Shown here in pieces: positions 1 to 46,172 of a DNA stretch of 64,000 nucleotides. Source of the stretch: Lingula anatina (Eukaryota > Animalia > Brachiopoda); assembly GCA_051362555.1 (NCBI GenBank), contig CM120648.1, positions 16,116,587 through 16,180,586 on the forward strand, written 5' to 3'. The notes under the pieces were generated by a model that had not been told where the DNA came from, searched no databases, and saw nothing but the letters and a program-made list of their open reading frames with translations. The position numbers and the translations under genes are program-made. Every line of letters starts with the position of its first letter. The stretch's first letter is position 1.

Positions 1-1527
1 AAACTGTACACAGAGGTGACAAGAGAAGGACCAGGGTGCAAGGCAGCAGTACCTAATGTAGCCATACAAGTTGGACTGTCCCAGACAATGATATCAAATG
101 TTGCATGCCGGCGAATTTTGATGTCAGCTCACATCCCTGTACCAGCAACAAGTGGGATGCAGAAACATACAAACAGTGTGCATGACAAGATAGTGGAAGC
201 CAACAGAGGTGACATGGCCAGAAGGCAGGCTCAGCTGCATGAGAACAACCAAGTAATGGGCCTCCCCAGAGACGCACCCATCAGAGTAGAGGGAGATGGA
301 CGTTATAATAACCCCCTGTATTCAGGTGCAGGGAAAACTCCCTTCCAGGCAGGCACACAGGCAGTGTATACAGTAGTTGAAAATCAAACTAAGAGCAAAC
401 AGGTGATTGCTGTGGCAACAAAAAATAAACTCTGTACTACAGCACAAAGACTGAGAAACAAGGGGCAGCATGTGACATGTCCAGATCACCATGGCCACTG
501 CTCTGCTTCAGCACCTCCTAACTCCAGCATTGGCGATGAAGCTGACCTAGCCCAGGCATGTGTGTTGGAAATGCAGCAGGACAACGAGCCAACACGTGTG
601 AAGTACTGCATTCTGGATGGTGATTCATGTGCACTGAAGGGTTTCCAACCTACCTCAGAGACATCAACAAGTGATACCCCTCCGCTTCTACTAAAAGACA
701 CCCGTCACCTCAGTCTTGGACAGAAACGTGCACTGGCCAAAGTATCCTGGAGTTCTGGGATGTTTCCTAGACATCTGAAAATAGAGAAAGAAAAACTGAT
801 TAACAGATTCAATGAGGATGTTAAGGGTCAGTGTGCTATGACATTGTCACTGTGTTATGATGCATGTGCTGGAGATGTGAACAAGATGATAAAAAAACTG
901 ACCTATGCCACTGATGCCATGATTGACTGTTACAATGGAAACCATGACTTATGCAAAAGAGGCAAGTCCTTCACATGTCAGGGCACAAAAAGACACCATT
1001 GGAACAAGCCCATGCTACCAGAAGGCTACAGGCTACATATGACTGATGAGGATAAAGATAAATTAAGACAATGTATTGGTTACAAATTGGACAGAAATGC
1101 AGTGCTCTCTCAGCAATTTAATAGTAACAGTCAAAAAGCAGAAGCAGTTAACCGCACCTATACATCAACAAACCCAAAATGTGTCACCATGACAAGGAAT
1201 TTCAGTGGCAGGATACACAGTGCTGTCCACAAGGTGAACAATGGACCAGGTCAGTCTACAGTGCAGCTACTGGAACATGTTGGAGCCAGCCTTCCACACA
1301 ATTCCCGTGTTCGATGCCAGCTGAAAAGTGAAGATGCACAAGTGAAAAAGAGAAAAGACTCTAAAAAGACTATTAAAAGCAAGCAAAACAGAATAAAAAC
1401 TGTTCTAAGAAACTATCAAATGTATGACTCTAGACCAGAAAAAGTTGTGTACAAAAAAGGCATGCATGACAAGCTGCCACAGAAATCCATTAGATGCCCT
1501 CCAGATCATAATTATAATAAAAAATAA
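1..1527 (+). CDS. DDE transposase, Mutator-like/Kolobok-type (5'-truncated by window edge)
   Basis: Open frame with VEGDGRYNNP, LDGDS, KDTRH, SQKAEAVN motifs. Confidence 0.8.
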   Translation, partial: KLYTEVTREGPGCKAAVPNVAIQVGLSQTMISNVACRRILMSAHIPVPATSGMQKHTNSVHDKIVEANRGDMARRQAQLHENNQVMGLPRDAPIRVEGDGRYNNPLYSGAGKTPFQAGTQAVYTVVENQTKSKQVIAVATKNKLCTTAQRLRNKGQHVTCPDHHGHCSASAPPNSSIGDEADLAQACVLEMQQDNEPTRVKYCILDGDSCALKGFQPTSETSTSDTPPLLLKDTRHLSLGQKRALAKVSWSSGMFPRHLKIEKEKLINRFNEDVKGQCAMTLSLCYDACAGDVNKMIKKLTYATDAMIDCYNGNHDLCKRGKSFTCQGTKRHHWNKPMLPEGYRLHMTDEDKDKLRQCIGYKLDRNAVLSQQFNSNSQKAEAVNRTYTSTNPKCVTMTRNFSGRIHSAVHKVNNGPGQSTVQLLEHVGASLPHNSRVRCQLKSEDAQVKKRKDSKKTIKSKQNRIKTVLRNYQMYDSRPEKVVYKKGMHDKLPQKSIRCPPDHNYNKK

Positions 1528-1585
1528 TAATTTTATATAAACAACGTGGTTTGTTATTTATTTATTAAATTGTGTGGGGTTAATT

Positions 1586-1675
1586 TTACTTAAAAGTTGG
1601 GGTTAACTTTCGCGGTCACACTTAAAAGTTGGGGTTAACTTTCACAGCAGTCACACTTAAAAGTTGGGGTTAAAG
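1586..1675 (+). repeat. Three ~31-35 bp subrepeats (acttaaaagttggggttaa...) leading into the TTAGGG tract, in every unit
   Basis: Direct reading; one subrepeat is missing in the unit at ~5520. Confidence 0.85.
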
Positions 1676-1887
1676 TTAGGGTTAGGGTTAGACTTAGGGT
1701 TAGGGTTAGGGTTAAAGTTAGGGTTAGGGTTAGGGTTAGGGTTAAAGTTAGGGTTAGGGTTAGAGGGTTAGGGTTAGGGTTAGACTTAGGGTTAGGGTTA
1801 AAGTTAGGGTTAGGGTTAGACTTAGGGTTAAAGTTAGGGTTAGGGTTAGACTTAAGGTTAGGGTTAGGGTTAGTGTTAGGGTTAGGG
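1676..1887 (+). repeat. Degenerate (TTAGGG)n tract
   Basis: ttaggg hexamers interspersed with ttagac/ttaaag variants. Confidence 0.95.
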
Positions 1888-1914
1888 TTTGAGCTAGTTT
1901 TAAAAATGGGATAA

Positions 1915-2610
1915 ATATTCTCCTACCGGCAGCTCTCTATCTTGTTAGTAAACAAACCACTGCACTGCTGACATTTAGGAGTTCCCTGCACCAGAGGTCC
2001 CACACTGCAACACAACTATCCTTGGTCCTGGAAAAAAAATGTGCAGTATTTAACATCCTAGCCTGCTAGTTGGCACCAAAATTAACTCTAACAAAACAGG
2101 AAAAATGTCAGAAACAAAGAGGAAAAAATGAAATACAATTTTTATACACTGTATTTTAGCAGAACTACATTTTGTCTGTCCTATACATGTCGTATTCTGT
2201 CATTGTAATGACCTATTTTTAGGGTTACACTTGCCACACAAGGGTAGAAACCACCAAATAATTTCCCTTTGACAACTATACAAAGAAATGCCTGCAAAAC
2301 TGCATGAATAAAAACATTTCCCATCCCCATGGACGGCAGACACACTGACATAACTCCCAATGGCACAAAAATATACTGTCACCAGACATTATTTCTTACC
2401 GGCATTACTTGAACATGTGACCCTTCTGTTTGTAAGCAAACCACTGCACTGCTCACATGTAGTAGCTCCCTCCGCCAGAGGTCTCACGACTGCACCACAA
2501 CTATGCCTGGTCCTGAAAAAAAAAAACTGGCAGTAGTTTACACCCTGGCCTGCTAGTTGATCCCAAATTTAACCCTAGCAACACACAAGAAATACCAGGA
2601 AAAAAAATGA
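1915..2610 (+). repeat. Diverged ~200-bp internal direct repeat pair in the unit spacer (about 1915-2110 and 2390-2610)
   Basis: Shared collinear blocks taccggca, aaaccactgcactgct, ccagaggtc, cacaactat, tggtcctg, gcctgctagttg at offset about 484 bp. Confidence 0.85.
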
Positions 2611-3324
2611 AAAAAAGCACTATTTTTATCTGAATGAACTATATTCGTCTATAACAGATGCTAATTGGCTGATTTATCAGTTTCCGCCCAGAACCAGAAA
2701 CCAAAAATAACAAAATGACAATCCACCTACATATCCGGTTTAAAGTAGTGCTCAAACTTAATCAATCTTTATGAAATATTCACCAAAAACTCAACAGCAA
2801 TCCTGAAACATATCTGGAAAATTTGGTGCCTGTTGTAACAGTACTTATTGATATATTGCAGAATAAAAACATAGTCCAATTTACTGTGTTACACCTGTAA
2901 ATTACAACAAAAATGAGAGTAATTATGGTATGTGAAGACCTGTGATTTTATGAAAAAGCTATATATCACTTCCAATTTTTTTACGTGAACAACTTGTTCC
3001 TTTAGCTAATCAAAAAAAATATTTCCACACACATTTACCTACTATATATGACCATTTTATGGAAAGTTTTAAGCTCCCCACCCCCCTAAATACATAGATA
3101 AATGGATAAAAATGCTGATGCATTATTCCAAACATCTAAGACCTAAAACCAACATTGCATACAAAAGACAAGGTGTCACTTCCTCACATGGAAAAAAAAT
3201 TCCCAGGTTTACATCTGTGTAAACACTTTCCCTGGGGAGTTGAAATCAGTAGGGGCTCTGGGCCAGGTGGCTAGGGACAGGGAGCTAACACAAACATCCT
3301 GCTGCCTGGCCTCCTGCTGCCCTG

Positions 3325-3358
3325 TATAAAAGAGACCCCAGCTCAGCCAAAAATCATA
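3325..3358 (+). promoter_or_regulatory. TATA box and Inr-like site of transposase gene (repeated in each full unit)
   Basis: tataaaag at 3325 with tcata about 30 nt downstream, preceding ATGs at 3386 and 3447. Confidence 0.55.
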
Positions 3359-3446
3359 CCAGCTCACAGAGTTAGTCTGAAGTCCATGAGTGAAAAATAC
3401 TGTCATCTTAGAGGAGAAAAAAAAATTAGAGTTGCCAGGAGACAGA

Positions 3447-5456
3447 ATGCCTGGAAGAAAAAAGGCCAGAAAATGGTATTTTAAGCCAGGCAATACCTAT
3501 GGGTCTCAGTACTGGCAAGGTGTCAGTGAAAAAAAAGCAGACCAGAGGAAAGAAGAAAGTCACCCCTTTACCAGACTGAGTGCTACTCAGTATGAAGACC
3601 TTGTGACAGTGAGGAGAGATGGCACTCTCAGCCTCCATGATGTTGATGGAAATCCTGCTCCAGTGAGGTTGCTGAGACCAGTAAAACCAAAGGCCACAGT
3701 CCAGCAGCCTGAGTCTGATGGCAAGCCACCAGTCAGTGATGATGTCTACAAGCTACACCATCAGGGGAAGCTGCTGCAGTTTTTTAATGACTGCTTTCAA
3801 GAGCATGCAGAGACCAGTGCTGGTTGTGATGGCAGACTTGTCTTCGACCCAAACAAAGAGGAGAAGCGAGGACTGTGTTGGAAGGAGGAAATGAAGTGTG
3901 AGAAATGCAGCTATCACCCTAAAAAGACAAAACTGTACACAGAGGTGACAAGAGAAGGACCAGGGTGCAAGGCAGCAGTACCTAATGTAGCCATACAAGT
4001 TGGACTGTCCCAGACAATGATATCAAATGTTGCATGCCGGCGAATTTTGATGTCAGCTCACATCCCTGTACCAGCAACAAGTGGGATGCAGAAACATACA
4101 AACAGTGTGCATGACAAGATAGTGGAAGCCAACAGAGGTGACATGGCCAGAAGGCAGGCTCAGCTGCATGAGAACAACCAAGTAATGGGCCTCCCCAGAG
4201 ACGCACCCATCAGAGTAGAGGGAGATGGACGTTATAATAACCCCCTGTATTCAGGTGCAGGGAAAACTCCCTTCCAGGCAGGCACACAGGCAGTGTATAC
4301 AGTAGTTGAAAATCAAACTAAGAGCAAACAGGTGATTGCTGTGGCAACAAAAAATAAACTCTGTACTACAGCACAAAGACTGAGAAACAAGGGGCAGCAT
4401 GTGACATGTCCAGATCACCATGGCCACTGCTCTGCTTCAGCACCTCCTAACTCCAGCATTGGCGATGAAGCTGACCTAGCCCAGGCATGTGTGTTGGAAA
4501 TGCAGCAGGACAACGAGCCAACACGTGTGAAGTACTGCATTCTGGATGGTGATTCATGTGCACTGAAGGGTTTCCAACCTACCTCAGAGACATCAACAAG
4601 TGATACCCCTCCGCTTCTACTAAAAGACACCCGTCACCTCAGTCTTGGACAGAAACGTGCACTGGCCAAAGTATCCTGGAGTTCTGGGATGTTTCCTAGA
4701 CATCTGAAAATAGAGAAAGAAAAACTGATTAACAGATTCAATGAGGATGTTAAGGGTCAGTGTGCTATGACATTGTCACTGTGTTATGATGCATGTGCTG
4801 GAGATGTGAACAAGATGATAAAAAAACTGACCTATGCCACTGATGCCATGATTGACTGTTACAATGGAAACCATGACTTATGCAAAAGAGGCAAGTCCTT
4901 CACATGTCAGGGCACAAAAAGACACCATTGGAACAAGCCCATGCTACCAGAAGGCTACAGGCTACATATGACTGATGAGGATAAAGATAAATTAAGACAA
5001 TGTATTGGTTACAAATTGGACAGAAATGCAGTGCTCTCTCAGCACTTTAATAGTAACAGTCAAAAAGCAGAAGCAGTTAACCGCACCTATACATCAACAA
5101 ACCCAAAATGTGTCACCATGACAAGGAATTTCAGTGGCAGGATACACAGTGCTGTCCACAAGGTGAACAATGGACCAGGTCAGTCTACAGTGCAGCTACT
5201 GGAACATGTTGGAGCCAGCCTTCCACACAATTCCCGTGTTCGATGCCAGCTGAAAAGTGAAGATGCACAAGTGAAAAAGAGAAAAGACTCTAAAAAGACT
5301 ATTAAAAGCAAGCAAAACAGAATAAAAACTGTTCTAAGAAACTATCAAATGTATGACTCTAGACCAGAAAAAGTTGTGTACAAAAAAGGCATGCATGACA
5401 AGCTGCCACAGAAATCCATTAGATGCCCTCCAGATCATAATTATAATAAAAAATAA
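3447..5456 (+). CDS. DDE transposase, Mutator-like/Kolobok-type (669 aa from first in-frame ATG, MPGRKK)
   Basis: Intronless ORF; Cys cluster (C..G...CEKC), putative catalytic D (GDGRY), D (DGDS), DxxH, E (KAEAVN); basic C-terminus. Confidence 0.8.
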   Translation: MPGRKKARKWYFKPGNTYGSQYWQGVSEKKADQRKEESHPFTRLSATQYEDLVTVRRDGTLSLHDVDGNPAPVRLLRPVKPKATVQQPESDGKPPVSDDVYKLHHQGKLLQFFNDCFQEHAETSAGCDGRLVFDPNKEEKRGLCWKEEMKCEKCSYHPKKTKLYTEVTREGPGCKAAVPNVAIQVGLSQTMISNVACRRILMSAHIPVPATSGMQKHTNSVHDKIVEANRGDMARRQAQLHENNQVMGLPRDAPIRVEGDGRYNNPLYSGAGKTPFQAGTQAVYTVVENQTKSKQVIAVATKNKLCTTAQRLRNKGQHVTCPDHHGHCSASAPPNSSIGDEADLAQACVLEMQQDNEPTRVKYCILDGDSCALKGFQPTSETSTSDTPPLLLKDTRHLSLGQKRALAKVSWSSGMFPRHLKIEKEKLINRFNEDVKGQCAMTLSLCYDACAGDVNKMIKKLTYATDAMIDCYNGNHDLCKRGKSFTCQGTKRHHWNKPMLPEGYRLHMTDEDKDKLRQCIGYKLDRNAVLSQHFNSNSQKAEAVNRTYTSTNPKCVTMTRNFSGRIHSAVHKVNNGPGQSTVQLLEHVGASLPHNSRVRCQLKSEDAQVKKRKDSKKTIKSKQNRIKTVLRNYQMYDSRPEKVVYKKGMHDKLPQKSIRCPPDHNYNKK

Positions 5457-5572
5457 TAATTTTATATAAACAACGTGGTTTGTTATTTATTTATTAAATT
5501 GTGTGGGGTTAATTTTACTTAAAAGTTGGGGTTAACTTTCACAGCAGTCACACTTAAAAGTTGGGGTTAAAG

Positions 5573-5778
5573 TTAGGGTTAGGGTTAGACATAGGGTTAG
5601 GGTTAGGGTTAAAGTTAGGGTTAGGGTTAGAGGGTTAGGGTTAGGGTAAGGGTTAGGGTTAGACTTGGGGTTAGACTTAGGGTTAGGGTTAAAGTTAGGG
5701 TTAGGGTTAGACTTAGGGTTAAAGTTAGGGTTAGGGTTAGACTTAGGGTTAGGGTTAGGGTTAGTGTTAGGGTTAGGG
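5573..5778 (+). repeat. Degenerate (TTAGGG)n tract
   Basis: Direct reading. Confidence 0.95.
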
Positions 5779-7335
5779 TTTGAGCTAGTTTTAAAAATGG
5801 GATAAATATTCTCCTACCGGCAGCTCTCTATCTTGTTAGTAAACAAACCACTGCACTGCTGACATTTAGGAGTTCCCTGCACCAGAGGTCCCACACTGCA
5901 ACACAACTATCCTTGGTCCTGGAAAAAAAATATGCAGTATTTAACATCCTAGCCTGCTAGTTGGCACCAAAATTAACTCTAACAAAACAGGAAAAATGTC
6001 AGAAACAAAGAGGAAAAAATGAAATACAATTTTTATACACTGTATTTTAGCAGAACTACATTTTGTCTGTCCTACACATATCGTATTCTGTCATTGTAAT
6101 GACCTATTTTTAGGGTTACACTTGCCACACAAGGGTAGAAACCACCAAATAATTTCCCTTTGACAACTATACAAAGAAATGCCTGCAAAACTGCATGAAT
6201 AAAAACATTTCCCATCCCCATGGACGGCAGACACACTGACATAACTCCCAATGGCACAAAAATATACTGTCACCAGACATTATTTCTTACCGGCATTACT
6301 TGAACATGTGACCCTTCTGTTTGTAAGCAAACCACTGCACTGCTCACATGTAGTAGCTCCCTCCGCCAGAGGTCTCACGACTGCACCACAACTATGCCTG
6401 GTCCTGAAAAAAAAACTGGCAGTAGTTTACACCCTGGCCTGCTAGTTGATCCCAAATTTAACCCTAGCAACACACAAGAAATACCAGGAAAAAAAATGAA
6501 AAAAAGCACTATTTTTATCTGAATGAACTATATTCGTCTATAACAGATGCTAATTGGCTGATTTATCAGTTTCCGCCCAGAACCAGAAACCAAAAATAAC
6601 AAAATGACAATCCACCTACATATCCGGTTTAAAGTAGTGCTCAAACTTAATCAATCTTTATGAAATATTCACCAAAAACTCAACAGCAATCCTGAAACAT
6701 ATCTGGAAAATTTGGTGCCTGTTGTAACAGTACTTATTGATATATTGCAGAATAAAAACATAGTCCAATTTACTGTGTTACACCTGTAAATTACAACAAA
6801 AATGAGAGTAATTATGGTATGTGAAGACCTGTGATTTTATGAAAAAGCTATATATCACTTCCAATTATTTTACGTGAACAACTTGTTCCTTTAGCTAATC
6901 AAAAAAAATATTTCCACACACATTTACCTACTATATATGACCATTTTATGGAAAGTTTTAAGCTCCCCACCCCCCTAAATACATAGATAAATGGATAAAA
7001 ATGCTGATGCATTATTCCAAACATCTAAGACCTAAAACCAACATTGCATACAAAAGACAAGGTGTCACTTCCTCACATGGAAAAAAAATTCCCAGGTTTA
7101 CATCTGTGTAAACACTTTCCCTGGGGAGTTGAAATCAGTAGGGGCTCTGGGCCAGGTGGCTAGGGACAGGGAGCTAACACAAACATCCTGCTGCCTGGCC
7201 TCCTGCTGCCCTGTATAAAAGAGACCCCAGCTCAGCCAAAAATCATACCAGCTCACAGAGTTAGTCTGAAGTCCATGAGTGAAAAATACTGTCATCTTAG
7301 AGGAGAAAAAAAAATTAGAGTTGCCAGGAGACAGA

Positions 7336-9345
7336 ATGCCTGGAAGAAAAAAGGCCAGAAAATGGTATTTTAAGCCAGGCAATACCTATGGGTCTCAGTA
7401 CTGGCAAGGTGTCAGTGAAAAAAAAGCAGACCAGAGGAAAGAAGAAAGTCACCCCTTTACCAGACTGAGTGCTACTCAGTATGAAGACCTTGTGACAGTG
7501 AGGAGAGATGGCACTCTCAGCCTCCATGATGTTGATGGAAATCCTGCTCCAGTGAGGTTGCTGAGACCAGTAAAACCAAAGGCCACAGTCCAGCAGCCTG
7601 AGTCTGATGGCAAGCCACCAGTCAGTGATGATGTCTACAAGCTACACCATCAGGGGAAGCTGCTGCAGTTTTTTAATGACTGCTTTCAAGAGCATGCAGA
7701 GACCAGTGCTGGTTGTGATGGCAGACTTGTCTTCGACCCAAACAAAGAGGAGAAGCGAGGACTGTGTTGGAAGGAGGAAATGAAGTGTGAGAAATGCAGC
7801 TATCACCCTAAAAAGACAAAACTGTACACAGAGGTGACAAGAGAAGGACCAGGGTGCAAGGCAGCAGTACCTAATGTAGCCATACAAGTTGGACTGTCCC
7901 AGACAATGATATCAAATGTTGCATGCCGGCGAATTTTGATGTCAGCTCACATCCCTGTACCAGCAACAAGTGGGATGCAGAAACATACAAACAGTGTGCA
8001 TGACAAGATAGTGGAAGCCAACAGAGGTGACATGGCCAGAAGGCAGGCTCAGCTGCATGAGAACAACCAAGTAATGGGCCTCCCCAGAGACGCACCCATC
8101 AGAGTAGAGGGAGATGGACGTTATAATAACCCCCTGTATTCAGGTGCAGGGAAAACTCCCTTCCAGGCAGGCACACAGGCAGTGTATACAGTAGTTGAAA
8201 ATCAAACTAAGAGCAAACAGGTGATTGCTGTGGCAACAAAAAATAAACTCTGTACTACAGCACAAAGACTGAGAAACAAGGGGCAGCATGTGACATGTCC
8301 AGATCACCATGGCCACTGCTCTGCTTCAGCACCTCCTAACTCCAGCATTGGCGATGAAGCTGACCTAGCCCAGGCATGTGTGTTGGAAATGCAGCAGGAC
8401 AACGAGCCAACACGTGTGAAGTACTGCATTCTGGATGGTGATTCATGTGCACTGAAGGGTTTCCAACCTACCTCAGAGACATCAACAAGTGATACCCCTC
8501 CGCTTCTACTAAAAGACACCCGTCACCTCAGTCTTGGACAGAAACGTGCACTGGCCAAAGTATCCTGGAGTTCTGGGATGTTTCCTAGACATCTGAAAAT
8601 AGAGAAAGAAAAACTGATTAACAGATTCAATGAGGATGTTAAGGGTCAGTGTGCTATGACATTGTCACTGTGTTATGATGCATGTGCTGGAGATGTGAAC
8701 AAGATGATAAAAAAACTGACCTATGCCACTGATGCCATGATTGACTGTTACAATGGAAACCATGACTTATGCAAAAGAGGCAAGTCCTTCACATGTCAGG
8801 GCACAAAAAGACACCATTGGAACAAGCCCATGCTACCAGAAGGCTACAGGCTACATATGACTGATGAGGATAAAGATAAATTAAGACAATGTATTGGTTA
8901 CAAATTGGACAGAAATGCAGTGCTCTCTCAGCACTTTAATAGTAACAGTCAAAAAGCAGAAGCAGTTAACCGCACCTATACATCAACAAACCCAAAATGT
9001 GTCACCATGACAAGGAATTTCAGTGGCAGGATACACAGTGCTGTCCACAAGGTGAACAATGGACCAGGTCAGTCTACAGTGCAGCTACTGGAACATTTTG
9101 GAGCCAGCCTTCCACACAATTCCCGTGTTCGATGCCAGCTGAAAAGTGAAGATGCACAAGTGAAAAAGAGAAAAGACTCTAAAAAGACTATTAAAAGCAA
9201 GCAAAACAGAATAAAAACTGTTCTAAGAAACTATCAAATGTATGACTCTAGACCAGAAAAAGTTGTGTACAAAAAAGGCATGCATGACAAGCTGCCACAG
9301 AAATCCATTAGATGCCCTCCAGATCATAATTATAATAAAAAATAA
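7336..9345 (+). CDS. DDE transposase copy
   Basis: Near-identical to 3447-5456. Confidence 0.8.
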   Translation: MPGRKKARKWYFKPGNTYGSQYWQGVSEKKADQRKEESHPFTRLSATQYEDLVTVRRDGTLSLHDVDGNPAPVRLLRPVKPKATVQQPESDGKPPVSDDVYKLHHQGKLLQFFNDCFQEHAETSAGCDGRLVFDPNKEEKRGLCWKEEMKCEKCSYHPKKTKLYTEVTREGPGCKAAVPNVAIQVGLSQTMISNVACRRILMSAHIPVPATSGMQKHTNSVHDKIVEANRGDMARRQAQLHENNQVMGLPRDAPIRVEGDGRYNNPLYSGAGKTPFQAGTQAVYTVVENQTKSKQVIAVATKNKLCTTAQRLRNKGQHVTCPDHHGHCSASAPPNSSIGDEADLAQACVLEMQQDNEPTRVKYCILDGDSCALKGFQPTSETSTSDTPPLLLKDTRHLSLGQKRALAKVSWSSGMFPRHLKIEKEKLINRFNEDVKGQCAMTLSLCYDACAGDVNKMIKKLTYATDAMIDCYNGNHDLCKRGKSFTCQGTKRHHWNKPMLPEGYRLHMTDEDKDKLRQCIGYKLDRNAVLSQHFNSNSQKAEAVNRTYTSTNPKCVTMTRNFSGRIHSAVHKVNNGPGQSTVQLLEHFGASLPHNSRVRCQLKSEDAQVKKRKDSKKTIKSKQNRIKTVLRNYQMYDSRPEKVVYKKGMHDKLPQKSIRCPPDHNYNKK

Positions 9346-9493
9346 TAATTTTATATAAACAACGTGGTTTGTTATTTATTTATTAAATTGTGTGGGGTTA
9401 ATTTTACTTAAAAGTTGGGGTTAACTTTCGCGGTCACACTTAAAAGTTGGGGTTAACTTTCACAGCAGTCACACTTAAAAGTTGGGGTTAAAG

Positions 9494-9699
9494 TTAGGGT
9501 TAGGGTTAGACATAGGGTTAGGGTTAGGGTTAAAGTTAGGGTTAGGGTTAGAGGGTTAGGGTTAGGGTAAGGGTTAGGGTTAGACTTGGGGTTAGACTTA
9601 GGGTTAGGGTTAAAGTTAGGGTTAGGGTTAGACTTAGGGTTAAAGTTAGGGTTAGGGTTAGACTTAGGGTTAGGGTTAGGGTTAGTGTTAGGGTTAGGG
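9494..9699 (+). repeat. Degenerate (TTAGGG)n tract
   Basis: Direct reading; same variant pattern as 5573-5778. Confidence 0.95.
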
Positions 9700-11255
9700 T
9701 TTGAGCTAGTTTTAAAAATGGGATAAATATTCTCCTACCGGCAGCTCTCTATCTTGTTAGTAAACAAACCACTGCACTGCTGACATTTAGGAGTTCCCTG
9801 CACCAGAGGTCCCACACTGCAACACAACTATCCTTGGTCCTGGAAAAAAATATGCAGTATTTAACATCCTAGCCTGCTAGTTGGCACCAAAATTAACTCT
9901 AACAAAACAGGAAAAATGTCAGAAACAAAGAGGAAAAAATGAAATACAATTTTTATACACTGTATTTTAGCAGAACTACATTTTGTCTGTCCTACACATA
10001 TCGTATTCTGTCATTGTAATGACCTATTTTTAGGGTTACACTTGCCACACAAGGGTAGAAACCACCAAATAATTTCCCTTTGACAACTATACAAAGAAAT
10101 GCCTGCAAAACTGCATGAATAAAAACATTTCCCATCCCCATGGACGGCAGACACACTGACATAACTCCCAATGGCACAAAAATATACTGTCACCAGACAT
10201 TATTTCTTACCGGCATTACTTGAACATGTGACCCTTCTGTTTGTAAGCAAACCACTGCACTGCTCACATGTAGTAGCTCCCTCCGCCAGAGGTCTCACGA
10301 CTGCACCACAACTATGCCTGGTCCTGAAAAAAAAACTGGCAGTAGTTTACACCCTGGCCTGCTAGTTGATCCCAAATTTAACCCTAGCAACACACAAGAA
10401 ATACCAGGAAAAAAAATGAAAAAAAGCACTATTTTTATCTGAATGAACTATATTCGTCTATAACAGATGCTAATTGGCTGATTTATCAGTTTCCGCCCAG
10501 AACCAGAAACCAAAAATAACAAAATGACAATCCACCTACATATCCGGTTTAAAGTAGTGCTCAAACTTAATCAATCTTTATGAAATATTCACCAAAAACT
10601 CAACAGCAATCCTGAAACATATCTGGAAAATTTGGTGCCTGTTGTAACAGTACTTATTGATATATTGCAGAATAAAAACATAGTCCAATTTACTGTGTTA
10701 CACCTGTAAATTACAACAAAAATGAGAGTAATTATGGTATGTGAAGACCTGTGATTTTATGAAAAAGCTATATATCACTTCCAATTATTTTACGTGAACA
10801 ACTTGTTCCTTTAGCTAATCAAAAAAAATATTTCCACACACATTTACCTACTATATATGACCATTTTATGGAAAGTTTTAAGCTCCCCACCCCCCTAAAT
10901 ACATAGATAAATGGATAAAAATGCTGATGCATTATTCCAAACATCTAAGACCTAAAACCAACATTGCATACAAAAGACAAGGTGTCACTTCCTCACATGG
11001 AAAAAAAATTCCCAGGTTTACATCTGTGTAAACACTTTCCCTGGGGAGTTGAAATCAGTAGGGGCTCTGGGCCAGGTGGCTAGGGACAGGGAGCTAACAC
11101 AAACATCCTGCTGCCTGGCCTCCTGCTGCCCTGTATAAAAGAGACCCCAGCTCAGCCAAAAATCATACCAGCTCACAGAGTTAGTCTGAAGTCCATGAGT
11201 GAAAAATACTGTCATCTTAGAGGAGAAAAAAAAATTAGAGTTGCCAGGAGACAGA

Positions 11256-13265
11256 ATGCCTGGAAGAAAAAAGGCCAGAAAATGGTATTTTAAGCCAGGC
11301 AATACCTATGGGTCTCAGTACTGGCAAGGTGTCAGTGAAAAAAAAGCAGACCAGAGGAAAGAAGAAAGTCACCCCTTTACCAGACTGAGTGCTACTCAGT
11401 ATGAAGACCTTGTGACAGTGAGGAGAGATGGCACTCTCAGCCTCCATGATGTTGATGGAAATCCTGCTCCAGTGAGGTTGCTGAGACCAGTAAAACCAAA
11501 GGCCACAGTCCAGCAGCCTGAGTCTGATGGCAAGCCACCAGTCAGTGATGATGTCTACAAGCTACACCATCAGGGGAAGCTGCTGCAGTTTTTTAATGAC
11601 TGCTTTCAAGAGCATGCAGAGACCAGTGCTGGTTGTGATGGCAGACTTGTCTTCGACCCAAACAAAGAGGAGAAGCGAGGACTGTGTTGGAAGGAGGAAA
11701 TGAAGTGTGGGAAATGCAGCTATCACTCTAAAAAGACAAAACTGTACACAGAGGTGACAAGAGAAGGACCAGGGTGCAAGGCAGCAGTACCTAATGTAGC
11801 CATACAAGTTGGACTGTCCCAGACAATGATATCAAATGTTGCATGCCGGCGAATTTTGATGTCAGCTCACATCCCTGTACCAGCAACAAGTGGGATGCAG
11901 AAACATACAAACAGTGTGCATGACAAGATAGTGGAAGCCAACAGAGGTGACATGGCCAGAAGGCAGGCTCAGCTGCATGAGAACAACCAAGTAATGGGCC
12001 TCCCCAGAGACGCACCCATCAGAGTAGAGGGAGATGGACGTTATAATAACCCCCTGTATTCAGGTGCAGGGAAAACTCCCTTCCAGGCAGGCACACAGGC
12101 AGTGTATACAGTAGTTGAAAATCAAACTAAGAGCAAACAGGTGATTGCTGTGGCAACAAAAAATAAACTCTGTACTACAGCACAAAGACTGAGAAACAAG
12201 GGGCAGCATGTGACATGTCCAGATCACCATGGCCACTGCTCTGCTTCAGCACCTCCTAACTCCAGCATTGGCGATGAAGCTGACCTAGCCCAGGCATGTG
12301 TGTTGGAAATGCAGCAGGACAACGAGCCAACACGTGTGAAGTACTGCATTCTGGATGGTGATTCATGTGCACTGAAGGGTTTCCAACCTACCTCAGAGAC
12401 ATCAACAAGTGATACCCCTCCGCTTCTACTAAAAGACACCCGTCACCTCAGTCTTGGACAGAAACGTGCACTGGCCAAAGTATCCAGGAGTTCTGGGATG
12501 TTTCCTAGACATCTGAAAATAGAGAAAGAAAAACTGATTAACAGATTCAATGAGGATGTTAAGGGTCAGTGTGCTATGACATTGTCACTGTGTTATGATG
12601 CATGTGCTGGAGATGTGAACAAGATGATAAAAAAACTGACCTATGCCACTGATGCCATGATTGACTGTTACAATGGAAACCATGACTTATGCAAAAGAGG
12701 CAAGTCCTTCACATGTCAGGGCACAAAAAGACACCATTGGAACAAGCCCATGCTACCAGAAGGCTACAGGCTACATATGACTGATGAGGATAAAGATAAA
12801 TTAAGACAATGTATTGGTTACAAATTGGACAGAAATGCAGTGCTCTCTCAGCAATTTAATAGTAACAGTCAAAAAGCAGAAGCAGTTAACCGCACCTATA
12901 CATCAACAAACCCAAAATGTGTCACCATGACAAGGAATTTCAGTGGCAGGATACACAGTGCTGTCCACAAGGTGAACAATGGACCAGGTCAGTCTACAGT
13001 GCAGCTACTGGAACATGTTGGAGCCAGCCTTCCACACAATTCCCGTGTTCGATGCCAGCTGAAAAGTGAAGATGCACAAGTGAAAAAGAGAAAAGACTCT
13101 AAAAAGACTATTAAAAGCAAGCAAAACAGAATAAAAACTGTTCTAAGAAACTATCAAATGTATGACTCTAGACCAGAAAAAGTTGTGTACAAAAAAGGCA
13201 TGCATGACAAGCTGCCACAGAAATCCATTAGATGCCCTCCAGATCATAATTATAATAAAAAATAA
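11256..13265 (+). CDS. DDE transposase copy
   Basis: Near-identical ORF; CGKC and VSRSS variants. Confidence 0.8.
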   Translation: MPGRKKARKWYFKPGNTYGSQYWQGVSEKKADQRKEESHPFTRLSATQYEDLVTVRRDGTLSLHDVDGNPAPVRLLRPVKPKATVQQPESDGKPPVSDDVYKLHHQGKLLQFFNDCFQEHAETSAGCDGRLVFDPNKEEKRGLCWKEEMKCGKCSYHSKKTKLYTEVTREGPGCKAAVPNVAIQVGLSQTMISNVACRRILMSAHIPVPATSGMQKHTNSVHDKIVEANRGDMARRQAQLHENNQVMGLPRDAPIRVEGDGRYNNPLYSGAGKTPFQAGTQAVYTVVENQTKSKQVIAVATKNKLCTTAQRLRNKGQHVTCPDHHGHCSASAPPNSSIGDEADLAQACVLEMQQDNEPTRVKYCILDGDSCALKGFQPTSETSTSDTPPLLLKDTRHLSLGQKRALAKVSRSSGMFPRHLKIEKEKLINRFNEDVKGQCAMTLSLCYDACAGDVNKMIKKLTYATDAMIDCYNGNHDLCKRGKSFTCQGTKRHHWNKPMLPEGYRLHMTDEDKDKLRQCIGYKLDRNAVLSQQFNSNSQKAEAVNRTYTSTNPKCVTMTRNFSGRIHSAVHKVNNGPGQSTVQLLEHVGASLPHNSRVRCQLKSEDAQVKKRKDSKKTIKSKQNRIKTVLRNYQMYDSRPEKVVYKKGMHDKLPQKSIRCPPDHNYNKK

Positions 13266-13413
13266 TAATTTTATATAAACAACGTGGTTTGTTATTTATT
13301 TATTAAATTGTGTGGGGTTAATTTTACTTAAAAGTTGGGGTTAACTTTCGCGGTCACACTTAAAAGTTGGGGTTAACTTTCACAGCAGTCACACTTAAAA
13401 GTTGGGGTTAAAG

Positions 13414-13625
13414 TTAGGGTTAGGGTTAGACTTAGGGTTAGGGTTAGGGTTAAAGTTAGGGTTAGGGTTAGGGTTAGGGTTAAAGTTAGGGTTAGGGTTA
13501 GAGGGTTAGGGTTAGGGTTAGACTTAGGGTTAGGGTTAAAGTTAGGGTTAGGGTTAGACTTAGGGTTAAAGTTAGGGTTAGGGTTAGACTTAAGGTTAGG
13601 GTTAGGGTTAGTGTTAGGGTTAGGG
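13414..13625 (+). repeat. Degenerate (TTAGGG)n tract
   Basis: Direct reading; same variant pattern as 1676-1887. Confidence 0.95.
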
Positions 13626-15179
13626 TTTGAGCTAGTTTTAAAAATGGGATAAATATTCTCCTACCGGCAGCTCTCTATCTTGTTAGTAAACAAACCACTG
13701 CACTGCTGACATTTAGGAGTTCCCTGCACCAGAGGTCCCACACTGCAACACAACTATCCTTGGTCCTGGAAAAAAAATATGCAGTATTTAACATCCTAGC
13801 CTGCTAGTTGGCACCAAAATTAACTCTAACAAAACAGGAAAAATGTCAGAAACAAAGAGGAAAAAATGAAATACAATTTTTATACACTGTATTTTAGCAG
13901 AACTACATTTTGTCTGTCCTATACATGTCGTATTCTGTCATTGTAATGACCTATTTTTAGGGTTACACTTGCCACACAAGGGTAGAAACCACCAAATAAT
14001 TTCCCTTTGACAACTATACAAAGAAATGCCTGCAAAACTGCATGAATAAAAACATTTCCCATCCCCATGGACGGCAGACACACTGACATAACTCCCAATG
14101 GCACAAAAATATACTGTCACCAGACATTATTTCTTACCGGCATTACTTGAACATGTGACCCTTCTGTTTGTAAGCAAACCACTGCACTGCTCACATGTAG
14201 TAGCTCCCTCCGCCAGAGGTCTCACGACTGCACCACAACTATGCCTGGTCCTGAAAAAAAAAACTGGCAGTAGTTTACACCCTGGCCTGCTAGTTGATCC
14301 CAAATTTAACCCTAGCAACACACAAGAAATACCAGGAAAAAAAATGAAAATAAGCACTATTTTTATCTGAATGAACTATATTCGTCTATAACAGATGCTA
14401 ATTGGCTGATTTATCAGTTTCCGCCCAGAACCAGAAACCAAAAATAACAAAATGACAATCCACCTACATATCCGGTTTAAAGTAGTGCTCAAACTTAATC
14501 AATCTTTATGAAATATTCACCAAAAACTCAACAGCAATCCTGAAACATATCTGGAAAATTTGGTGCCTGTTGTAACAGTACTTATTGATATATTGCAGAA
14601 TAAAAACATAGTCCAATTTACTGTGTTACACCTGTAAATTACAACAAAAATGAGAGTAATTATGCTATATGAAGACCTGTGATTTTATGAAAAAGCTATA
14701 TATCACTTCCAATTTTTTTACATGAACAACTTGTTCCTTTAGCTAATCAAAAAAAATATTTCCACACACATTTACCTACTATGACCATTTTATGGAAAGT
14801 TTTAAGCTCCCCACCCCCCTAAATACATAGATAAATGGATAAAAATGCTGATGCATTATTCCAAACATCTAAGACCTAAAACCAACATTGCATACAAAAG
14901 ACAAGGTGTCACTTCCTCACATGGAAAAAAAATTCCCAGGTTTACATCTGTGTAAACACTTTCCCTGGGGAGTTGAAATCAGTAGGGGCTCTGGGCCAGG
15001 TGGCTAGGGACAGGGAGCTAACACAAACATCCTGCTGCCTGGCCTCCTGCTGCCCTGTATAAAAGAGACCCCAGCTCAGCCAAAAATCATACCAGCTCAC
15101 AGAGTTAGTCTGAAGTCCATGAGTGAAAAATACTGTCATCTTAGAGGAGAAAAAAAAATTAGAGTTGCCAGGAGACAGA

Positions 15180-17189
15180 ATGCCTGGAAGAAAAAAGGCC
15201 AGAAAATGGTATTTTAAGCCTGGCAATACCTATGGGTCTCAGTACTGGCAAGGTGTCAGTGAAAAAAAAGCAGACCAGAGGAAAGAAGAAAGTCACCCCT
15301 TTACCAGACTGAGTGCTACTCAGTATGAAAACCTTGTGACAGTGAGGAGAGATGGCACTCTCAGCCTCCATGATGTTGATGGAAATCCTGCTCCAGTGAG
15401 GTTGCTGAGACCAGTAAAACCAAAGGCCACAGTCCAGCAGCCTGAGTCTGATGGCAAGCCACCAGTCAGTGATGATGTCTACAAGCTACACCATCAGGGG
15501 AAGCTGCTGCAGTTTTTTAATGACTGCTTTCAAGAGCATGCAGAGACCAGTGCTGGTTGTGATGGCAGACTTGTCTTCGACCCAAACAAAGAGGAGAAGC
15601 GAGGACTGTGTTGGAAGGAGGAAATGAAGTGTGGGAAATGCAGCTATCACTCTAAAAAGACAAAACTGTACACAGAGGTGACAAGAGAAGGACCAGGGTG
15701 CAAGGCAGCAGTACCTAATGTAGCCATACAAGTTGGACTGTCCCAGACAATGATATCAAATGTTGCATGCCGGCGAATTTTGATGTCAGCTCACATCCCT
15801 GTACCAGCAACAAGTGGGATGCAGAAACATACAAACAGTGTGCATGACAAGATAGTGGAAGCCAACAGAGGTGACATGGCCAGAAGGCGGGCTCAGCTGC
15901 ATGAGAACAACCAAGTAATGGGCCTCCCCAGAGACGCACCCATCAGAGTAGAGGGAGATGGACGTTATAATAACCCCCTGTATTCAGGTGCAGGGAAAAC
16001 TCCCTTCCAGGCAGGCACACAGGCAGTGTATACAGTAGTTGAAAATCAAACTAAGAGCAAACAGGTGATTGCTGTGGCAACAAAAAATAAACTCTGTACT
16101 ACAGCACAAAGACTGAGAAACAAGGGGCAGCGTGTGACATGTCCAGATCACCATGGCCACTGCTCTGCTTCAGCAACTCCTAACTCCAGCATTGGCGATG
16201 AAGCTGACCTACCCCAGGCATGTGTGTTGGAAATGCAGCAGGACAACGAGCCAACACGTGTGAAGTACTGCATTCTGGATGGTGATTCACGTGCACTGAA
16301 GGGTTTCCAACCTACCTTAGAGACATCAACAAGTGATACCCCTCCGCTTCTACTAAAAGACACCCGTCACCTCAGTCTTGGACAGAAACGTGCACTGGCC
16401 AAAGTATCCTGGAGTTCTGGGATGTTTCCTAGACATCTGAAAATAGAGAAAGAAAAACTGATAAACAGATTCAATGAGGATGTTAAGCGTCAGTGTGCTA
16501 TGACATTGTCACTGTGTTATGATGCATGTGCTGGAGATGTGAACAAGATGATAAAAAAACTGACCTATGCCACTGATGCCATGATTGACTGTTACAATGG
16601 AAACCATGACTTATGCAAAAGAGGCAAGTCCTTCACATGTCAGGGCACAAAAAGACACCATTGGAACAAGCCCATGCTACCAGAAGGCTACAGGCTACAT
16701 ATGACTGATGAGGATAAAGATAAATTAAGACAATGTATTGGTTACAAATTGGACAGAAATGCAGTGCTCTCTCAGCAATTTAATAGTAACAGTCAAAAAG
16801 CAGAAGCAGTTAACCGCACCTATACATCAACAAACCCAAAATGTGTCACCATGACAAGGAATTTCAGTGGCAGGATACACAGTGCTGTCCACAAGGTGAA
16901 CAATGGACCAGGTCAGTCTACAGTGCAGCTACTGGAACATGTTGGAGCCAGCCTTCCACACAATTCCCGTGTTCGATGCCAGCTGAAAAGTGAAGATGCA
17001 CAAGTGAAAAAGAGAAAAGACTCTAAAAAGACTATTAAAAGCAAGCAAAACAGAATAAAAACTGTTCTAAGAAACTATCAAATGTATGACTCTAGACCAG
17101 AAAAAGTTGTGTACAAAAAAGGCATGCATGACAAGCTGCCACAGAAATCCATTAGATGCCCTCCAGATCATAATTATAATAAAAAATAA
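15180..17189 (+). CDS. DDE transposase copy (most divergent in array 1)
   Basis: Intact ORF with several private substitutions and variants shared with array 2. Confidence 0.8.
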   Translation: MPGRKKARKWYFKPGNTYGSQYWQGVSEKKADQRKEESHPFTRLSATQYENLVTVRRDGTLSLHDVDGNPAPVRLLRPVKPKATVQQPESDGKPPVSDDVYKLHHQGKLLQFFNDCFQEHAETSAGCDGRLVFDPNKEEKRGLCWKEEMKCGKCSYHSKKTKLYTEVTREGPGCKAAVPNVAIQVGLSQTMISNVACRRILMSAHIPVPATSGMQKHTNSVHDKIVEANRGDMARRRAQLHENNQVMGLPRDAPIRVEGDGRYNNPLYSGAGKTPFQAGTQAVYTVVENQTKSKQVIAVATKNKLCTTAQRLRNKGQRVTCPDHHGHCSASATPNSSIGDEADLPQACVLEMQQDNEPTRVKYCILDGDSRALKGFQPTLETSTSDTPPLLLKDTRHLSLGQKRALAKVSWSSGMFPRHLKIEKEKLINRFNEDVKRQCAMTLSLCYDACAGDVNKMIKKLTYATDAMIDCYNGNHDLCKRGKSFTCQGTKRHHWNKPMLPEGYRLHMTDEDKDKLRQCIGYKLDRNAVLSQQFNSNSQKAEAVNRTYTSTNPKCVTMTRNFSGRIHSAVHKVNNGPGQSTVQLLEHVGASLPHNSRVRCQLKSEDAQVKKRKDSKKTIKSKQNRIKTVLRNYQMYDSRPEKVVYKKGMHDKLPQKSIRCPPDHNYNKK

Positions 17190-17337
17190 TAATTTTATAT
17201 AAACAACGTGGTTTGTTATTTATTTATTAAATTGTGTGGGGTTAATTTTACTTAAAAGTTGGGGTTAACTTTTGCGGTCACACTTAAAAGTTGGGGTTAA
17301 CTTTCACAGCAGTCACACTTAAAAGTTGGGGTTAAAG

Positions 17338-17555
17338 TTAGGGTTAGGGTTAGACTTAGGGTTAGGGTTAGGGTTAAAGTTAGGGTTAGGGTTAGGGTTA
17401 GGGTTAAAGTTAGGGTTAGGGTTAGAGGGTTAGGGTTAGGGTTAGGGTTAGACTTATGGTTAGGGTTAAAGTTAGGGTTAGGGTTAGACTTAGGGTTAAA
17501 GTTAGGGTTAGGGTTAGACTTAAGGTTAGGGTTAGGGTTAGTGTTAGGGTTAGGG
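17338..17555 (+). repeat. Degenerate (TTAGGG)n tract
   Basis: Direct reading. Confidence 0.95.
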
Positions 17556-17996
17556 TTTGAGCTAGTTTTAAAAATGGGATAAATATTCTCCTACCGGCAG
17601 CTCTCTATCTTGTTAGTAAACAAACCACTGCACTGCTGACATTTAGGAGTTCCCTGCACCAGAGGTCCCACACTGCAACACAACTATCCTTGGTCCTGGA
17701 AAAAAAATATGCAGTATTTAACATCCTAGCCTGCTAGTTGGCACCAAAATTAACTCTAACAAAACAGGAAAAATGTCAGAAACAAAGAGGAAAAAATGAA
17801 ATACAATTTTTATACACTGTATTTTAGCAGAACTACATTTTGTCTGTCCTATACATGTCGTATTCTGTCATTGTAATGACCTATTTTTAGGGTTACACTT
17901 GCCACACAAGGGTAGAAACCACCAAATAATTTCCCTTTGACAACTATACAAAGAAATGCCTGCAAAACTGCATGAATAAAAACATTTCCCATCCCC

Positions 17997-18828
17997 ATGG
18001 ACGGCAGACACACTGACATAACTCCAAATGGCACAAAAATATACTGTCACCAGACATTATTTCTTACCGGCATTACTTGAACATGTGACCCTTCTGTTTG
18101 TAAGCAAACCACTGCACTGCTCACATGTAGTAGCTCCCTCCGCCAGAGGTCTCACGACTGCACCACAACTATGCCTGGTCCTGAAAAAAAAACTGGCAGT
18201 AGTTTACACCCTGGCCTGCTAGTTGATCCCAAATTTAACCCTAGCAACACACAAGAAATACCAGGAAAAAAAATGAAAAAAAGCACTATTTTTATCTGAA
18301 TGAACTATATTCCTCTATAACAGATGGACGGCAGACACACTGACATAACTCCCAATGGTACAAAAATATACTGTCACCAGACATTATTTCTTACCGGCAT
18401 TACTTGAACATGTGACCCTTCTGTTTGTAAGCAAACCACTGCACTGCTCACATGTAGTAGCTCCCTCCGCCAGAGGTCTCACGACTGCACCACAACTATG
18501 CCTGGTCCTGAAAAAAAAACTGGCAGTAGTTTACACCCTGGCCTGCTAGTTGATCCCAAATTTAACCCTAGCAACACACAAGAAATACCAGGAAAAAAAA
18601 TGAAAAAAAGCACTATTTTTATCTGAATGAACTATATTCCTCTATAACAGATGGACGGCAGACACACTGACATAACTCCCAATGGCACAAAAATATACTG
18701 TCACCAGACATTATTTCTTACCGGCATTACTTGAACATGTGACCCTTCTGTTTGTAAGCAAACCACTGCACTGCTCACATGTAGTAGCTCCCTCCGCCAG
18801 AGGTCTCACGACTGCACCACAACTATGC
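17997..18828 (+). repeat. 327-bp tandem amplification (2.5 copies) of a spacer segment at the end of array 1
   Basis: Copies start at 17997, 18324, 18651; junction aacagatg|gacggc with atg microhomology. Confidence 0.9.
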
Positions 18829-41777: not shown

Positions 41778-41920
41778 AGACCCCAGCTCAGCCAAAAATC
41801 ATACCAGCTCACAGAGTTAGTCTGAAGTCCATGAGTGAAAAATACTGTCATCTTAGAGGAGAAAAAAAATTAGAGTTGCCAGGAGATAGAATGCCTGGAA
41901 GAAAAAAGGCCAGAAAATGT
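41778..41920 (+). pseudogene. Internally deleted first unit of array 2 (about 2 kb of ORF removed)
   Basis: ...ggccagaaaatg joined directly to tggggttaattttac (3' flank of ORF), tg microhomology. Confidence 0.85.
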
Positions 41921-42020
41921 GGGGTTAATTTTACTTAAAAGTTGGGGTTAACTTTCGCGGTCACACTTAAAAGTTGGGGTTAACTTTCACAGCAGTCACA
42001 CTTAAAAGTTGGGGTTAAAG

Positions 42021-42256
42021 TTAGGGTTAGGGTTAGACTTAGGGTTAGGGTTAGGGTTAAAGTTAGGGTTAGGGTTAGGGTTAAAGTTAGGGTTAGGGTT
42101 AGGGTTAGGGTTAAAGTTAGGGTTAGGGTTAGAGGGTTAGACTTAGGGATAGGGTTAGACTTAGGGTTAGACTTAGGGTTAGGGTTAAAGTTAGGGTTAG
42201 GGTTAGACTTAGGGTTAAAGTTAGGGTTAGGGTTAGACTTAGGGTTAGGGTTAGGG
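42021..42256 (+). repeat. Degenerate (TTAGGG)n tract
   Basis: Direct reading. Confidence 0.95.
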
Positions 42257-43748
42257 TTTGAGCTAGTTTTAAAAATGGGATAAATATTCTCCTACCGGCA
42301 GCTCTCTATCTTGTTAGTAAACAAACCACTGCACTGCTGACATTTAGGAGTTCCCTGCACCAGAGGCCCCACACTGCAACACAACTATCCTTGGTCCTGG
42401 AAAAAAAATATGCAGTATTTAACATCCTAGCCTGCTAGTTGGCACCAAAATTAACTCTAACAAAACAGGAAAAATGTCAGAAACAAAGAGGAAAAAATGA
42501 AATACAATTTTTATACACTGTATTTTAGCAGAACTACATTTTGTCTGTCCTATACATGTCGTATTCTGTCATTGTAATGACCTATTTTTAGGGTTACACT
42601 TGCCACACAAGGGTAGAAACCACCAAATAATTTCCCTTTGACAACTATACAAAGAAATGCCTGCAAAACTGCATGAATAAAAACATTTCCCATCCCCATG
42701 GACGGCAGACACACTGACATAACTCCCAATGGCACAAAAATATACTGTCACCAGACATTATTTCTTACCGGCATTACTTGAACATGTGACCCTTCTGTTT
42801 GTAAGCAAACCACTGCACTGCTCACATGTAGTAGCTCCCTCCGCCAGAGGTCTCACGACTGCACCACAACTATGCCTGGTCCTGAAAAAAAAACTGGCAG
42901 TAGTTTACACCCTGGCCTGCTAGTTGATCCCAAATTTAACCCTAGCAACACACAAGAAATACCAGGAAAAAAAATGAAAAAAAGCACTATTTTTATCTGA
43001 ATGAACTATATTCGTCTATAACAGATGCTAATTGGCTGATTTATCAGTTTCCGCCCAGAACCAGAAACCAAAAATAACAAAATGACAATCCACCTACATA
43101 TCCGGTTTAAAGTAGTGCTCAAACTTAATCAATCTTTATGAAATATTCACCAAAAACTCAACAGCAATCCTGAAACATATCTGGAAAATTTGGTGCCTGT
43201 TGTAACATTACTTATTGATATATTGCAGAATAAAAACATAGTCCAATTTACTGTGTTACACCTGTAAATTACAACAAAAATGAGAGTAATTATGGTATAT
43301 GAAGACCTGTGATTTTATGAAAAAGCTATATATCACTTCCAATTTTTTTACATGAACAACTTGTTCCTTTAGCTAATCAAAAAAAATATTTCCACACACA
43401 TTTACCTACTATGACCATTTTATGGAAAGTTTTAAGCTCCCCACCCCCCTAAATACATAGATAAATGGATAAAAATGCTGATGCATTATTCCAAACATCT
43501 AAGACCTAAAACCAACATTGCATACAAAAGACAAGGTGTCACTTCCTCATATGGAAAAAAAATTCCCAGGTTTACATCTGTGTAAACACTTTCCCTGGGG
43601 AGTTGAAATCAGTAGGGGCTCTGGGCCAGGTGGCTAGGGACAGGGAGCTAACACAAACATCCTGCTGCCTGGCCTCCTGCTGCCCTGTATAAAAGAGACC
43701 CCAGCTCAGCCAAAAATCATACCAGCTCACAGAGTTAGTCTGAAGTCC

Positions 43749-45824: not shown

Positions 45825-45972
45825 TAATTTTATATAAACAACGTGGTTTGTTATTTATTTATTAAATTGTGTGGGGTTAATTTTACTTAAAATTTGGGGT
45901 TAACTTTCGCGGTCACACTTAAAAGTTGGGGTTAACTTTCACAGCAGTCACACTTAAAAGTTGGGGTTAAAG

Positions 45973-46172
45973 TTAGGGTTAGGGTTAGACTTAGGGTTAG
46001 GGTTAGGGTTAGGGTTAGGGTTAGGGTTAAAGTTAGGGTTAGGGTTAGAGGGTTAGACTTAGGGTTAGGGTTAGACTTAGGGTTAGACTTAGGGTTAGGG
46101 TTAAAGTTAGGGTTAGGGTTAGACTTAGGGTTAAAGTTAGGGTTAGGGTTAGACTTAGGGTTAGGGTTAGGG
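45973..46172 (+). repeat. Degenerate (TTAGGG)n tract
   Basis: Direct reading. Confidence 0.95.

Follow-up and report, generated by a model that had tools for sequence, protein, structure and literature searches.

A telomere-like repeat tract in arrays of a putative KolobokP transposon of Lingula anatina

Two arrays of a 3.9-kb unit and their tracts

The window, by which we mean the whole 64-kb stretch of Lingula anatina DNA that was analyzed, contains two head-to-tail arrays of a unit of ~3.9 kb, with nine complete units and one telomere-like tract per unit. Both arrays are on the plus strand. Array 1 (1..18828) runs off the window on its left side; its right end lies within a long terminal direct repeat (LTDR) and follows 2.5 copies of a 327-bp segment of the LTDR. 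Array 2 (41778..64000) begins within the 5' internal region of the unit, without an LTDR, and runs off the window on its right side. The inner ends of both arrays are truncated and both outer ends lie beyond the window. Neither terminal repeats nor any part of the unit were seen in the 23-kb middle segment that separates them; on the minus strand of this segment we found a 522-aa open frame (35095-36663) with two KY-like Ig domains (PF23265, E 1e-27), probably an exon of a host gene. Short arrays of 160-bp and 182-bp repeats were also present in this segment, at 23216-23840 and 20720-21092. At the terminus of array 1 (17997-18828), the 2.5 tandem copies of the LTDR piece are 99% alike and then break off, suggesting a satellite forming from the LTDR.

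The 5' internal region of the unit (2691..3443, plus strand), in which a TATA-like box was recognized from the sequence, precedes a 670-aa ORF for a DDE transposase (3444..5456, plus strand, PF20700) with D261, D368/D370, a DxxH motif at 395-398 and E543. This ORF is intact in five units. In four others the frame shifts at codon 335, a further copy, at the end of the window, is truncated at 105, and the remaining unit has lost the ORF by deletion. The ORF-less unit is explained by a single deletion, whose junction (41919-41921) shows 2-bp microhomology and one end of which lies at the entry of the tract at 42009. Four adjacent units of array 2 (47725-63908) carry an identical 4-bp frameshift, indicating that broken copies were amplified, and in run X13 four of eight RNA reads show this change as well. 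An extra insertion is present near 63754-63916 in the last unit of this array. In the final full unit of array 1 (13626-17555), haplotypes of both arrays are combined, an indication of exchange over the 23-kb gap. Loose ends at 1462 and 1524 (30 letters shown) mark another family that shares ~60 bp of the ORF end.

Using TRF followed by parsing of the 64-kb window, we identified the tract in 11/11 units of the two arrays, with 35–41 repeat units in each copy. The tracts of array 1 occupy 1664..1887 (37 units, 24 of them exact), 5561..5778, 9482..9699, 13402..13625 and 17326..17555, and those of array 2 occupy 42009..42256 (the longest, with 41 units, behind the ORF-deleted unit), 45961..46172 (the shortest, with 35 units), 49881..50104, 53813..54030, 57739..57962 and 61671..61894, all on the plus strand. 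Among their 407 repeat units, 258 (63%) were exact TTAGGG, 58 were TTAGAC and 52 were TTAAAG, in agreement with the recurring ttagac and ttaaag variants noticed in an earlier sequence-only reading of this DNA. The longest pure TTAGGG run per tract was 3–6 units, and no pure telomere was found in the window. TTAGGG or CCCTAA dimers were absent from the 64 kb outside the 11 tracts, which are therefore far beyond chance expectation. The 11 tracts are near-identical repeats of one ancestor, with seven distinct codes among them, and do not represent independent observations. Short interstitial telomeric sequences are defined in PMC7215372 by at least four telomeric units, with mismatches numbering below one per unit; the tracts, with 35–41 units, 63% of them exact, at sites internal within this window, belong to this class.

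Each tract is preceded by 32/35-bp subrepeats (entry block and three subrepeats at 1574..1663, plus strand, in the reference copy; the same block lies ahead of all 11 tracts), with three subrepeat copies in ten units and two copies in one, ahead of the tract at 5561, and is closed by the same 13-bp junction in 11/11 copies. Both the shared entry and the common exit had been described from sequence alone. TTGGGG is the opening unit in 8/11 copies, and the recurring block of the tract, TTAAAG followed by one or two TTAGGG and TTAGAC, mirrors the subrepeat core. The G strand is on the transposase strand in all 11 tracts, as also stated earlier; however, the earlier length range of 200–236 bp has to be revised to 212–248 bp (206–242 bp if counted from the first TTAAAG), and the hexamer phase, previously thought to be kept, is interrupted once per tract by an 8-bp unit in 11/11 copies.

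Relationship to KolobokP and position of the tract

Sequence features identify the unit as a predicted KolobokP multimer, with a Kolobok-type DDD/E transposase, a C/DxxH signature, zinc-finger inserts, an LTDR and an (LTDR-INT)n organization. The transposase matched PF20700 with E 4.5e-43, cysteines 307, 329, 480 and 488 and D395xxH398 are also present, and its motifs agree with the KolobokP rows in the supplement of PMC9587614. KolobokP as described by Kojima and Bao (2022, PMC9587614) shares with this unit the DDE motifs, an ~450-bp LTDR with short TIRs, (LTDR-INT)n multimers and a unit of ~3.9 kb. The present unit differs in the absence of a His-Me nuclease (a few such families are noted in that paper), in a second, decayed LTDR that abuts the current one, in a 212–248-bp tract 3' of the transposase and in its CA right end.

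In KolobokP, the LTDR measures ~450 or 660 bp, short TIRs have 5'-RR and YY-3' ends, a 3–5-bp target site duplication borders the outer ends, and most but not all families have a His-Me finger nuclease on the strand opposite to the transposase and behind it. A TIR search of the window with a repeat finder gave no clear pair, and the LTDR was found only from read data: DNA depth rises at 2241, where six contigs enter unlike flanks, and related contigs break off past 2675, where their TIR corresponds to the left LTDR end. The current LTDR placed in this way (2241..2690, plus strand) is 450 bp long, starts with AG, ends with CA and has a short imperfect TIR. Ten complete copies measure 448–450 bp, with AG at the left end and CA at the right end in 10/10; one base further in, the ends are GG..CC, 8/10 matched. 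In related contigs of the same species, the right end is CT instead of CA. The right end looks decayed, and the family with CA-ended LTDRs may no longer transpose, growing by recombination only. Over 2241-2675, related LTDR families were several-fold to ~30-fold deeper than the element itself in runs X3, X5 and X7.

The decayed second LTDR (1902..2240, plus strand) abuts the current one and aligns to LTDR 2367-2690, its rightmost 324 bp, through the last base, with ~80% identity in the core. The order 3' of the transposase stop is 43 bp, the subrepeats, the tract and the 1902-2240 segment. On the far side of the tract, a collinear 11/13 LTDR match in the expected register was detected, which was reached by 1/437 LTDR positions and 0/22936 background positions; as a free alignment this left-side match is not significant (656/2000 shuffles reach it), and the register depends on a short anchor. 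In full, the decayed LTDR may span 1571..2240 (plus strand), with 446 bp excluding the tract and 7-bp inverted ends, which is suggestive only. The subrepeat has no counterpart in the current LTDR. By these alignments, the tract lies in, or directly against, an older decayed LTDR, 3' of the transposase. It is 353 bp inside from the end of the current LTDR, and the LTDR junctions are neither TTAA nor telomeric, so that the tract is not a target-site remnant. The proposed link between its TTAA-containing variants and the Kolobok target tetranucleotide is thus not supported, also because KolobokP lacks a strong target preference according to PMC9587614. A separate tract-bearing MITE was considered and rejected, since the ORF end is part of the contigs that cover the tract entry, and the increase in depth does not begin before 2241.

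We found 27 transposase homologues among 7998 scored candidates, and those with names were bivalve sequences. A metagenome contig scan gave 11 related loci with 29–52% identity to the transposase, and protein scans of genome contig and viral contig collections detected no transposase relatives. Four of the 11 loci assemble as circles of 3.6–3.85 kb; we rejected these as proof of multimers, because a lone LTDR-INT-LTDR copy may give a circular assembly too. Also rejected was a small-RNA-gene target like that of Dada elements, with 0 Rfam matches in 9/11 loci scanned and one match at E=1 in the unit. LTDR-like segments with TIRs were found in three loci, L007 (465 bp), L008 (451 bp) and L001 (450 bp, read by eye), and these also end in CT.

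A gene for a His-Cys box nuclease lies directly behind the transposase, on the minus strand, in four of the 11 loci (L001, L005, L006 and L007), between the transposase stop and the LTDR, which is where the tract lies in the present unit. No His-Me nuclease was detected in this unit by profile or by tblastn from the four relatives' nucleases (best profile match E 0.17). The profile was built from these four, which match it by construction, and found nothing in the other seven loci, several of them partial. KolobokP-type loci with no detectable His-Me nuclease include L008, a whole, complete circular unit with its 451-bp LTDR, and 2707-5829 of L002. KolobokP-1_LG and KolobokP-1_SaGl also lack the nuclease according to PMC9587614, so its absence marks a variant and still allows membership in KolobokP. 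Arrays of at least five and at least six units stand here without the nuclease, making this a natural nuclease-less KolobokP with long multimers that bears on the proposed model in which the nuclease would build multimers.

The tract was absent from all 11 related loci, including 4/4 complete circular units, a comparison whose nearest member has 52% protein identity, relatives with 59–60% identity being outside it. One of these loci, L008, is without both nuclease and tract. A scan for the tract-entry pattern gave 0 matches in the genome contig and viral contig collections. In the KolobokP supplements, TTAGGGTTAGGG occurs four times in two passages, an isolated dimer and an 80-bp degenerate run elsewhere in the element, and the 70-letter line breaks of these files may hide matches. 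The internal region of KolobokP-2_PaMi (PMC9587614 supplement) is the closest case, a KolobokP with a degenerate TTAGGG run, but this run is ~80 bp, unpatterned and 5' of the transposase, pointing to an independent gain.

Inheritance, turnover and exchange

The tract code tracks flank SNPs (Mantel r 0.626, p 1e-4; 10/11 units, with the ORF-less unit left out). Each unit thus passes on its tract by descent, with no fresh addition in the individual copies, as the sequence-only reading had proposed, and tract codes are usable as haplotype tags for array turnover. The mean flank difference was 0.40% (max 0.68%), versus a tract difference of 6.6 of ~37 units, and in the nine complete units substitution-type variable columns per kb numbered 50.5 in the tract, 14.4 in the ORF and 10.3 in non-coding sequence. 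The tract is the fastest-changing part of the unit. Because the flanks differ by only 0.40%, similar tract lengths are expected from recent common descent, and the observed length range was reached by 66/256 random sign choices, a comparison of little power based on eight gain/loss events read by eye from the codes. The length constraint suggested earlier therefore finds no support, as a fast-changing tract among such close flanks fits a random walk. Retention of the tract in the ORF-less unit was correctly observed, the tract at 42009 following the deleted ORF; as evidence of function it fails, since a single deletion event cannot show selection for the tract.

The units are mosaics, and exchange between them is frequent. 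Four-gamete conflicts were found in 9/176 comparisons across the tract versus 8/175 within the sides (8/11 units; a few sites are alignment-edge gaps, and the comparison has little power), and exchange is not enriched across the tract. Read depth at the tract entry relative to neighboring unit pieces was ~1:1 in X5, 0.4–0.5 in X3 and 2–4 in X7, and the entry coincides with one deletion end and one RNA read start. A canonical G4 pattern was present in 10/11 tracts and (TTAGGG)4 in 8/11, whereas G4Hunter scores of at least 1.2 were reached in 18–38% of 25-nt windows (five tracts) versus 100% for the pure repeat.

These data bear on the idea that the tract replaces the lost His-Me nuclease by stalling forks and causing breaks, with repair off a neighboring unit adding units, which we regard as improbable. 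The tract occupies the position of the relatives' nuclease gene, one deletion ends at its entry, and interstitial telomeric tracts cause fragility and rearrangement according to PMC6410037. Long arrays (at least five and at least six tracts), together with LTDRs that end in CA in 10/10 copies and not in the YY needed by Kolobok ends, suggest that array growth is likely by recombination. However, there is no excess of exchange across the tract, L008, KolobokP-1_LG and KolobokP-1_SaGl (the latter two according to PMC9587614) are also nuclease-less and L008 has no tract, and the tract is short and interrupted, with only 18–38% of its 25-nt windows at a G4Hunter score of 1.2 or above. The nuclease-driven multimer model is itself still a proposal in PMC13565253. 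If the tract did stand in for the nuclease, it would give mobile elements a novel route to higher copy number through host telomere biology. A stronger form, in which KolobokP exchanged its homing endonuclease for a piece of telomere, and a fragile site bound by host telomere proteins drives the unequal exchange that builds arrays and, despite the decayed right end, disperses C-rich telomeric RNA together with interstitial telomeric DNA, appears quite improbable.

Origin of the tract and its possible roles

We think it fairly probable that the tract is an interstitial telomere-like minisatellite in a nuclease-less KolobokP multimer, likely a passenger that was inserted once at break repair and then amplified with the units. 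An ancestor would have lost the nuclease gene and acquired a second adjacent LTDR. A break close to the left end of the older LTDR would then have received telomeric repeats, either made by telomerase or captured from telomeric DNA, and local flank duplication accompanying the insertion would have given the subrepeats. Slippage of 24–36-bp blocks may have created the TTAAAG/TTAGAC pattern, these interruptions would keep pure runs short and length changes small, and unequal crossover and gene conversion among units would have multiplied and mixed the copies. Break-repair TTAGGG insertions are associated with deletions, flank duplications, in-register bases and decay with age (PMC7215372). The claim that the tract is not telomerase-added DNA holds for the present copies, which are inherited (Mantel r 0.63), but not necessarily for its origin, because junctional filler at a deletion or insertion, the telomere-register bases at the entry and the duplicated flank resemble the break-repair insertions of PMC7215372; telomerase involvement at this step is possible by analogy. 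We infer an insertion origin. No tract-free ancestral allele was found, and the current LTDR serves as a rough stand-in for the empty site; in one run, a single unverified low-depth contig (depth 53) joins 1530 to 2326 without the tract.

The main rival is that the tract grew in place from the 32/35-bp subrepeat by slippage, its telomere likeness implying no role of telomerase or telomeres, and it would still be a passenger. Growth in place has a low but appreciable probability. Each of the two main variants has two positions unlike TTAGGG and resembles the subrepeat core, which is also consistent with this origin, the TTAAAG, one or two TTAGGG, TTAGAC block mirrors that core, and TTGGGG comes first in 8/11 copies; the ~80-bp degenerate run 5' of the transposase in KolobokP-2_PaMi (PMC9587614 supplement) indicates that such runs arose more than once in KolobokP. 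On the other hand, the exact telomeric hexamer makes up 63% of units, an apparently collinear LTDR is interrupted by the tract, and the current LTDR has no counterpart of the subrepeat. The tract resembles the short interstitial telomeric sequences of PMC7215372 and PMC6410037 in having a few dozen TTAGGG units, an internal location, degeneracy, variable length and rearranged flanks; it differs in being located inside a transposon unit, multiplied with it and built of higher-order variant blocks, and most cases described are from vertebrates. It provides a clear example of interstitial telomeric DNA being multiplied by a DNA transposon array, which PMC6410037 lists only as a possible route. 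No description of a tract-bearing KolobokP array was found in the literature searched, with most subscription journals and Repbase outside its coverage.

Each tract contains 16–19 POT1-type and 19–24 TRF-type predicted sites, and binding of telomere proteins at the tract is quite possible. Mobile DNA with telomeric repeats includes HHV-6, SART/TRAS and ciliate TBE1 (also MoTeR), in which repeats of fixed strand are carried or targeted at element ends; in the direct repeats of HHV-6 they serve in chromosome-end recombination or new telomere seeding. A comparable role, with the tract as a handle by which arrays recombine into chromosome ends or seed new telomeres after a break, is very unlikely here. 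The G strand runs 5' to 3' in the same direction in every unit, the tract is within LTDR-derived sequence and telomere-protein sites are predicted. Unlike in HHV-6, SART/TRAS and TBE1, the tract lies internally, 353 bp from the LTDR, and none of the two inner array ends (0/2) falls in a tract; both arrays adjoin ordinary sequence with a host ORF, and no pure run exceeds six units. The KY-like Ig-domain ORF and the ordinary sequence between the arrays argue against a chromosome end at this locus. The unit also does not look like a telomere-targeting element, as LTDR junctions are not telomeric and the inner array ends are outside the tracts.

RNA was studied in four runs of the same species from three studies (X13, X14, X16 and X19, with X13 and X14 from one study), with the tract interior outside read mapping. 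Most reads over the unit were from the minus strand and defined antisense exons in the decayed LTDR (1927..2027, 101 nt), in the current LTDR (2400..2512, 113 nt) and over the transposase ORF (4583..4703, 121 nt, and 5087..5249, 163 nt). Three GT-AG introns had 14, 14 and 17 supporting reads in X13 and 2, 0 and 2 in X16, and one intron had 6 in X14; a further minus-strand GT-AG intron that contains the tract (1321..1926) is predicted from four reads whose loose end is 17 nt long. We rejected a hidden antisense protein, since the four exons total 498 nt with stops in all three frames. Reads also piled up over the tract entry in X13 (98x) and X14 (122x), where 25 and 21 molecules start at 1574, which suggests an unspliced C-rich antisense isoform with an end near 1500-1574. 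Neither this pile-up nor starts at 1574 were found in X16 and X19, the latter without any read at 99% identity.

These RNAs raise the question of whether the tract is kept because it belongs to an antisense RNA that holds the transposase in check or has an effect on telomeric RNA, to which we give a very small probability. The spliced minus-strand RNA with canonical introns crosses the unit, and the pile-up at the tract entry would fit such a role; however, the pile-up appeared in 2/4 runs, both from one of the three studies, the other isoform splices the tract out, and the exons have no open frame and no Rfam match above noise. A function of the tract as a break source, a telomere handle or a regulatory RNA has no positive support beyond position. 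The spliced antisense RNA (1321-5249) has strong splice sites, and two of its four exons lie in LTDR-derived sequence; it could represent host-gene read-through or a precursor of piRNAs. In the RNA runs, a minus-strand exon of related LTDR families was spliced to many unrelated sequences, and solo LTDRs may be widely exonised.
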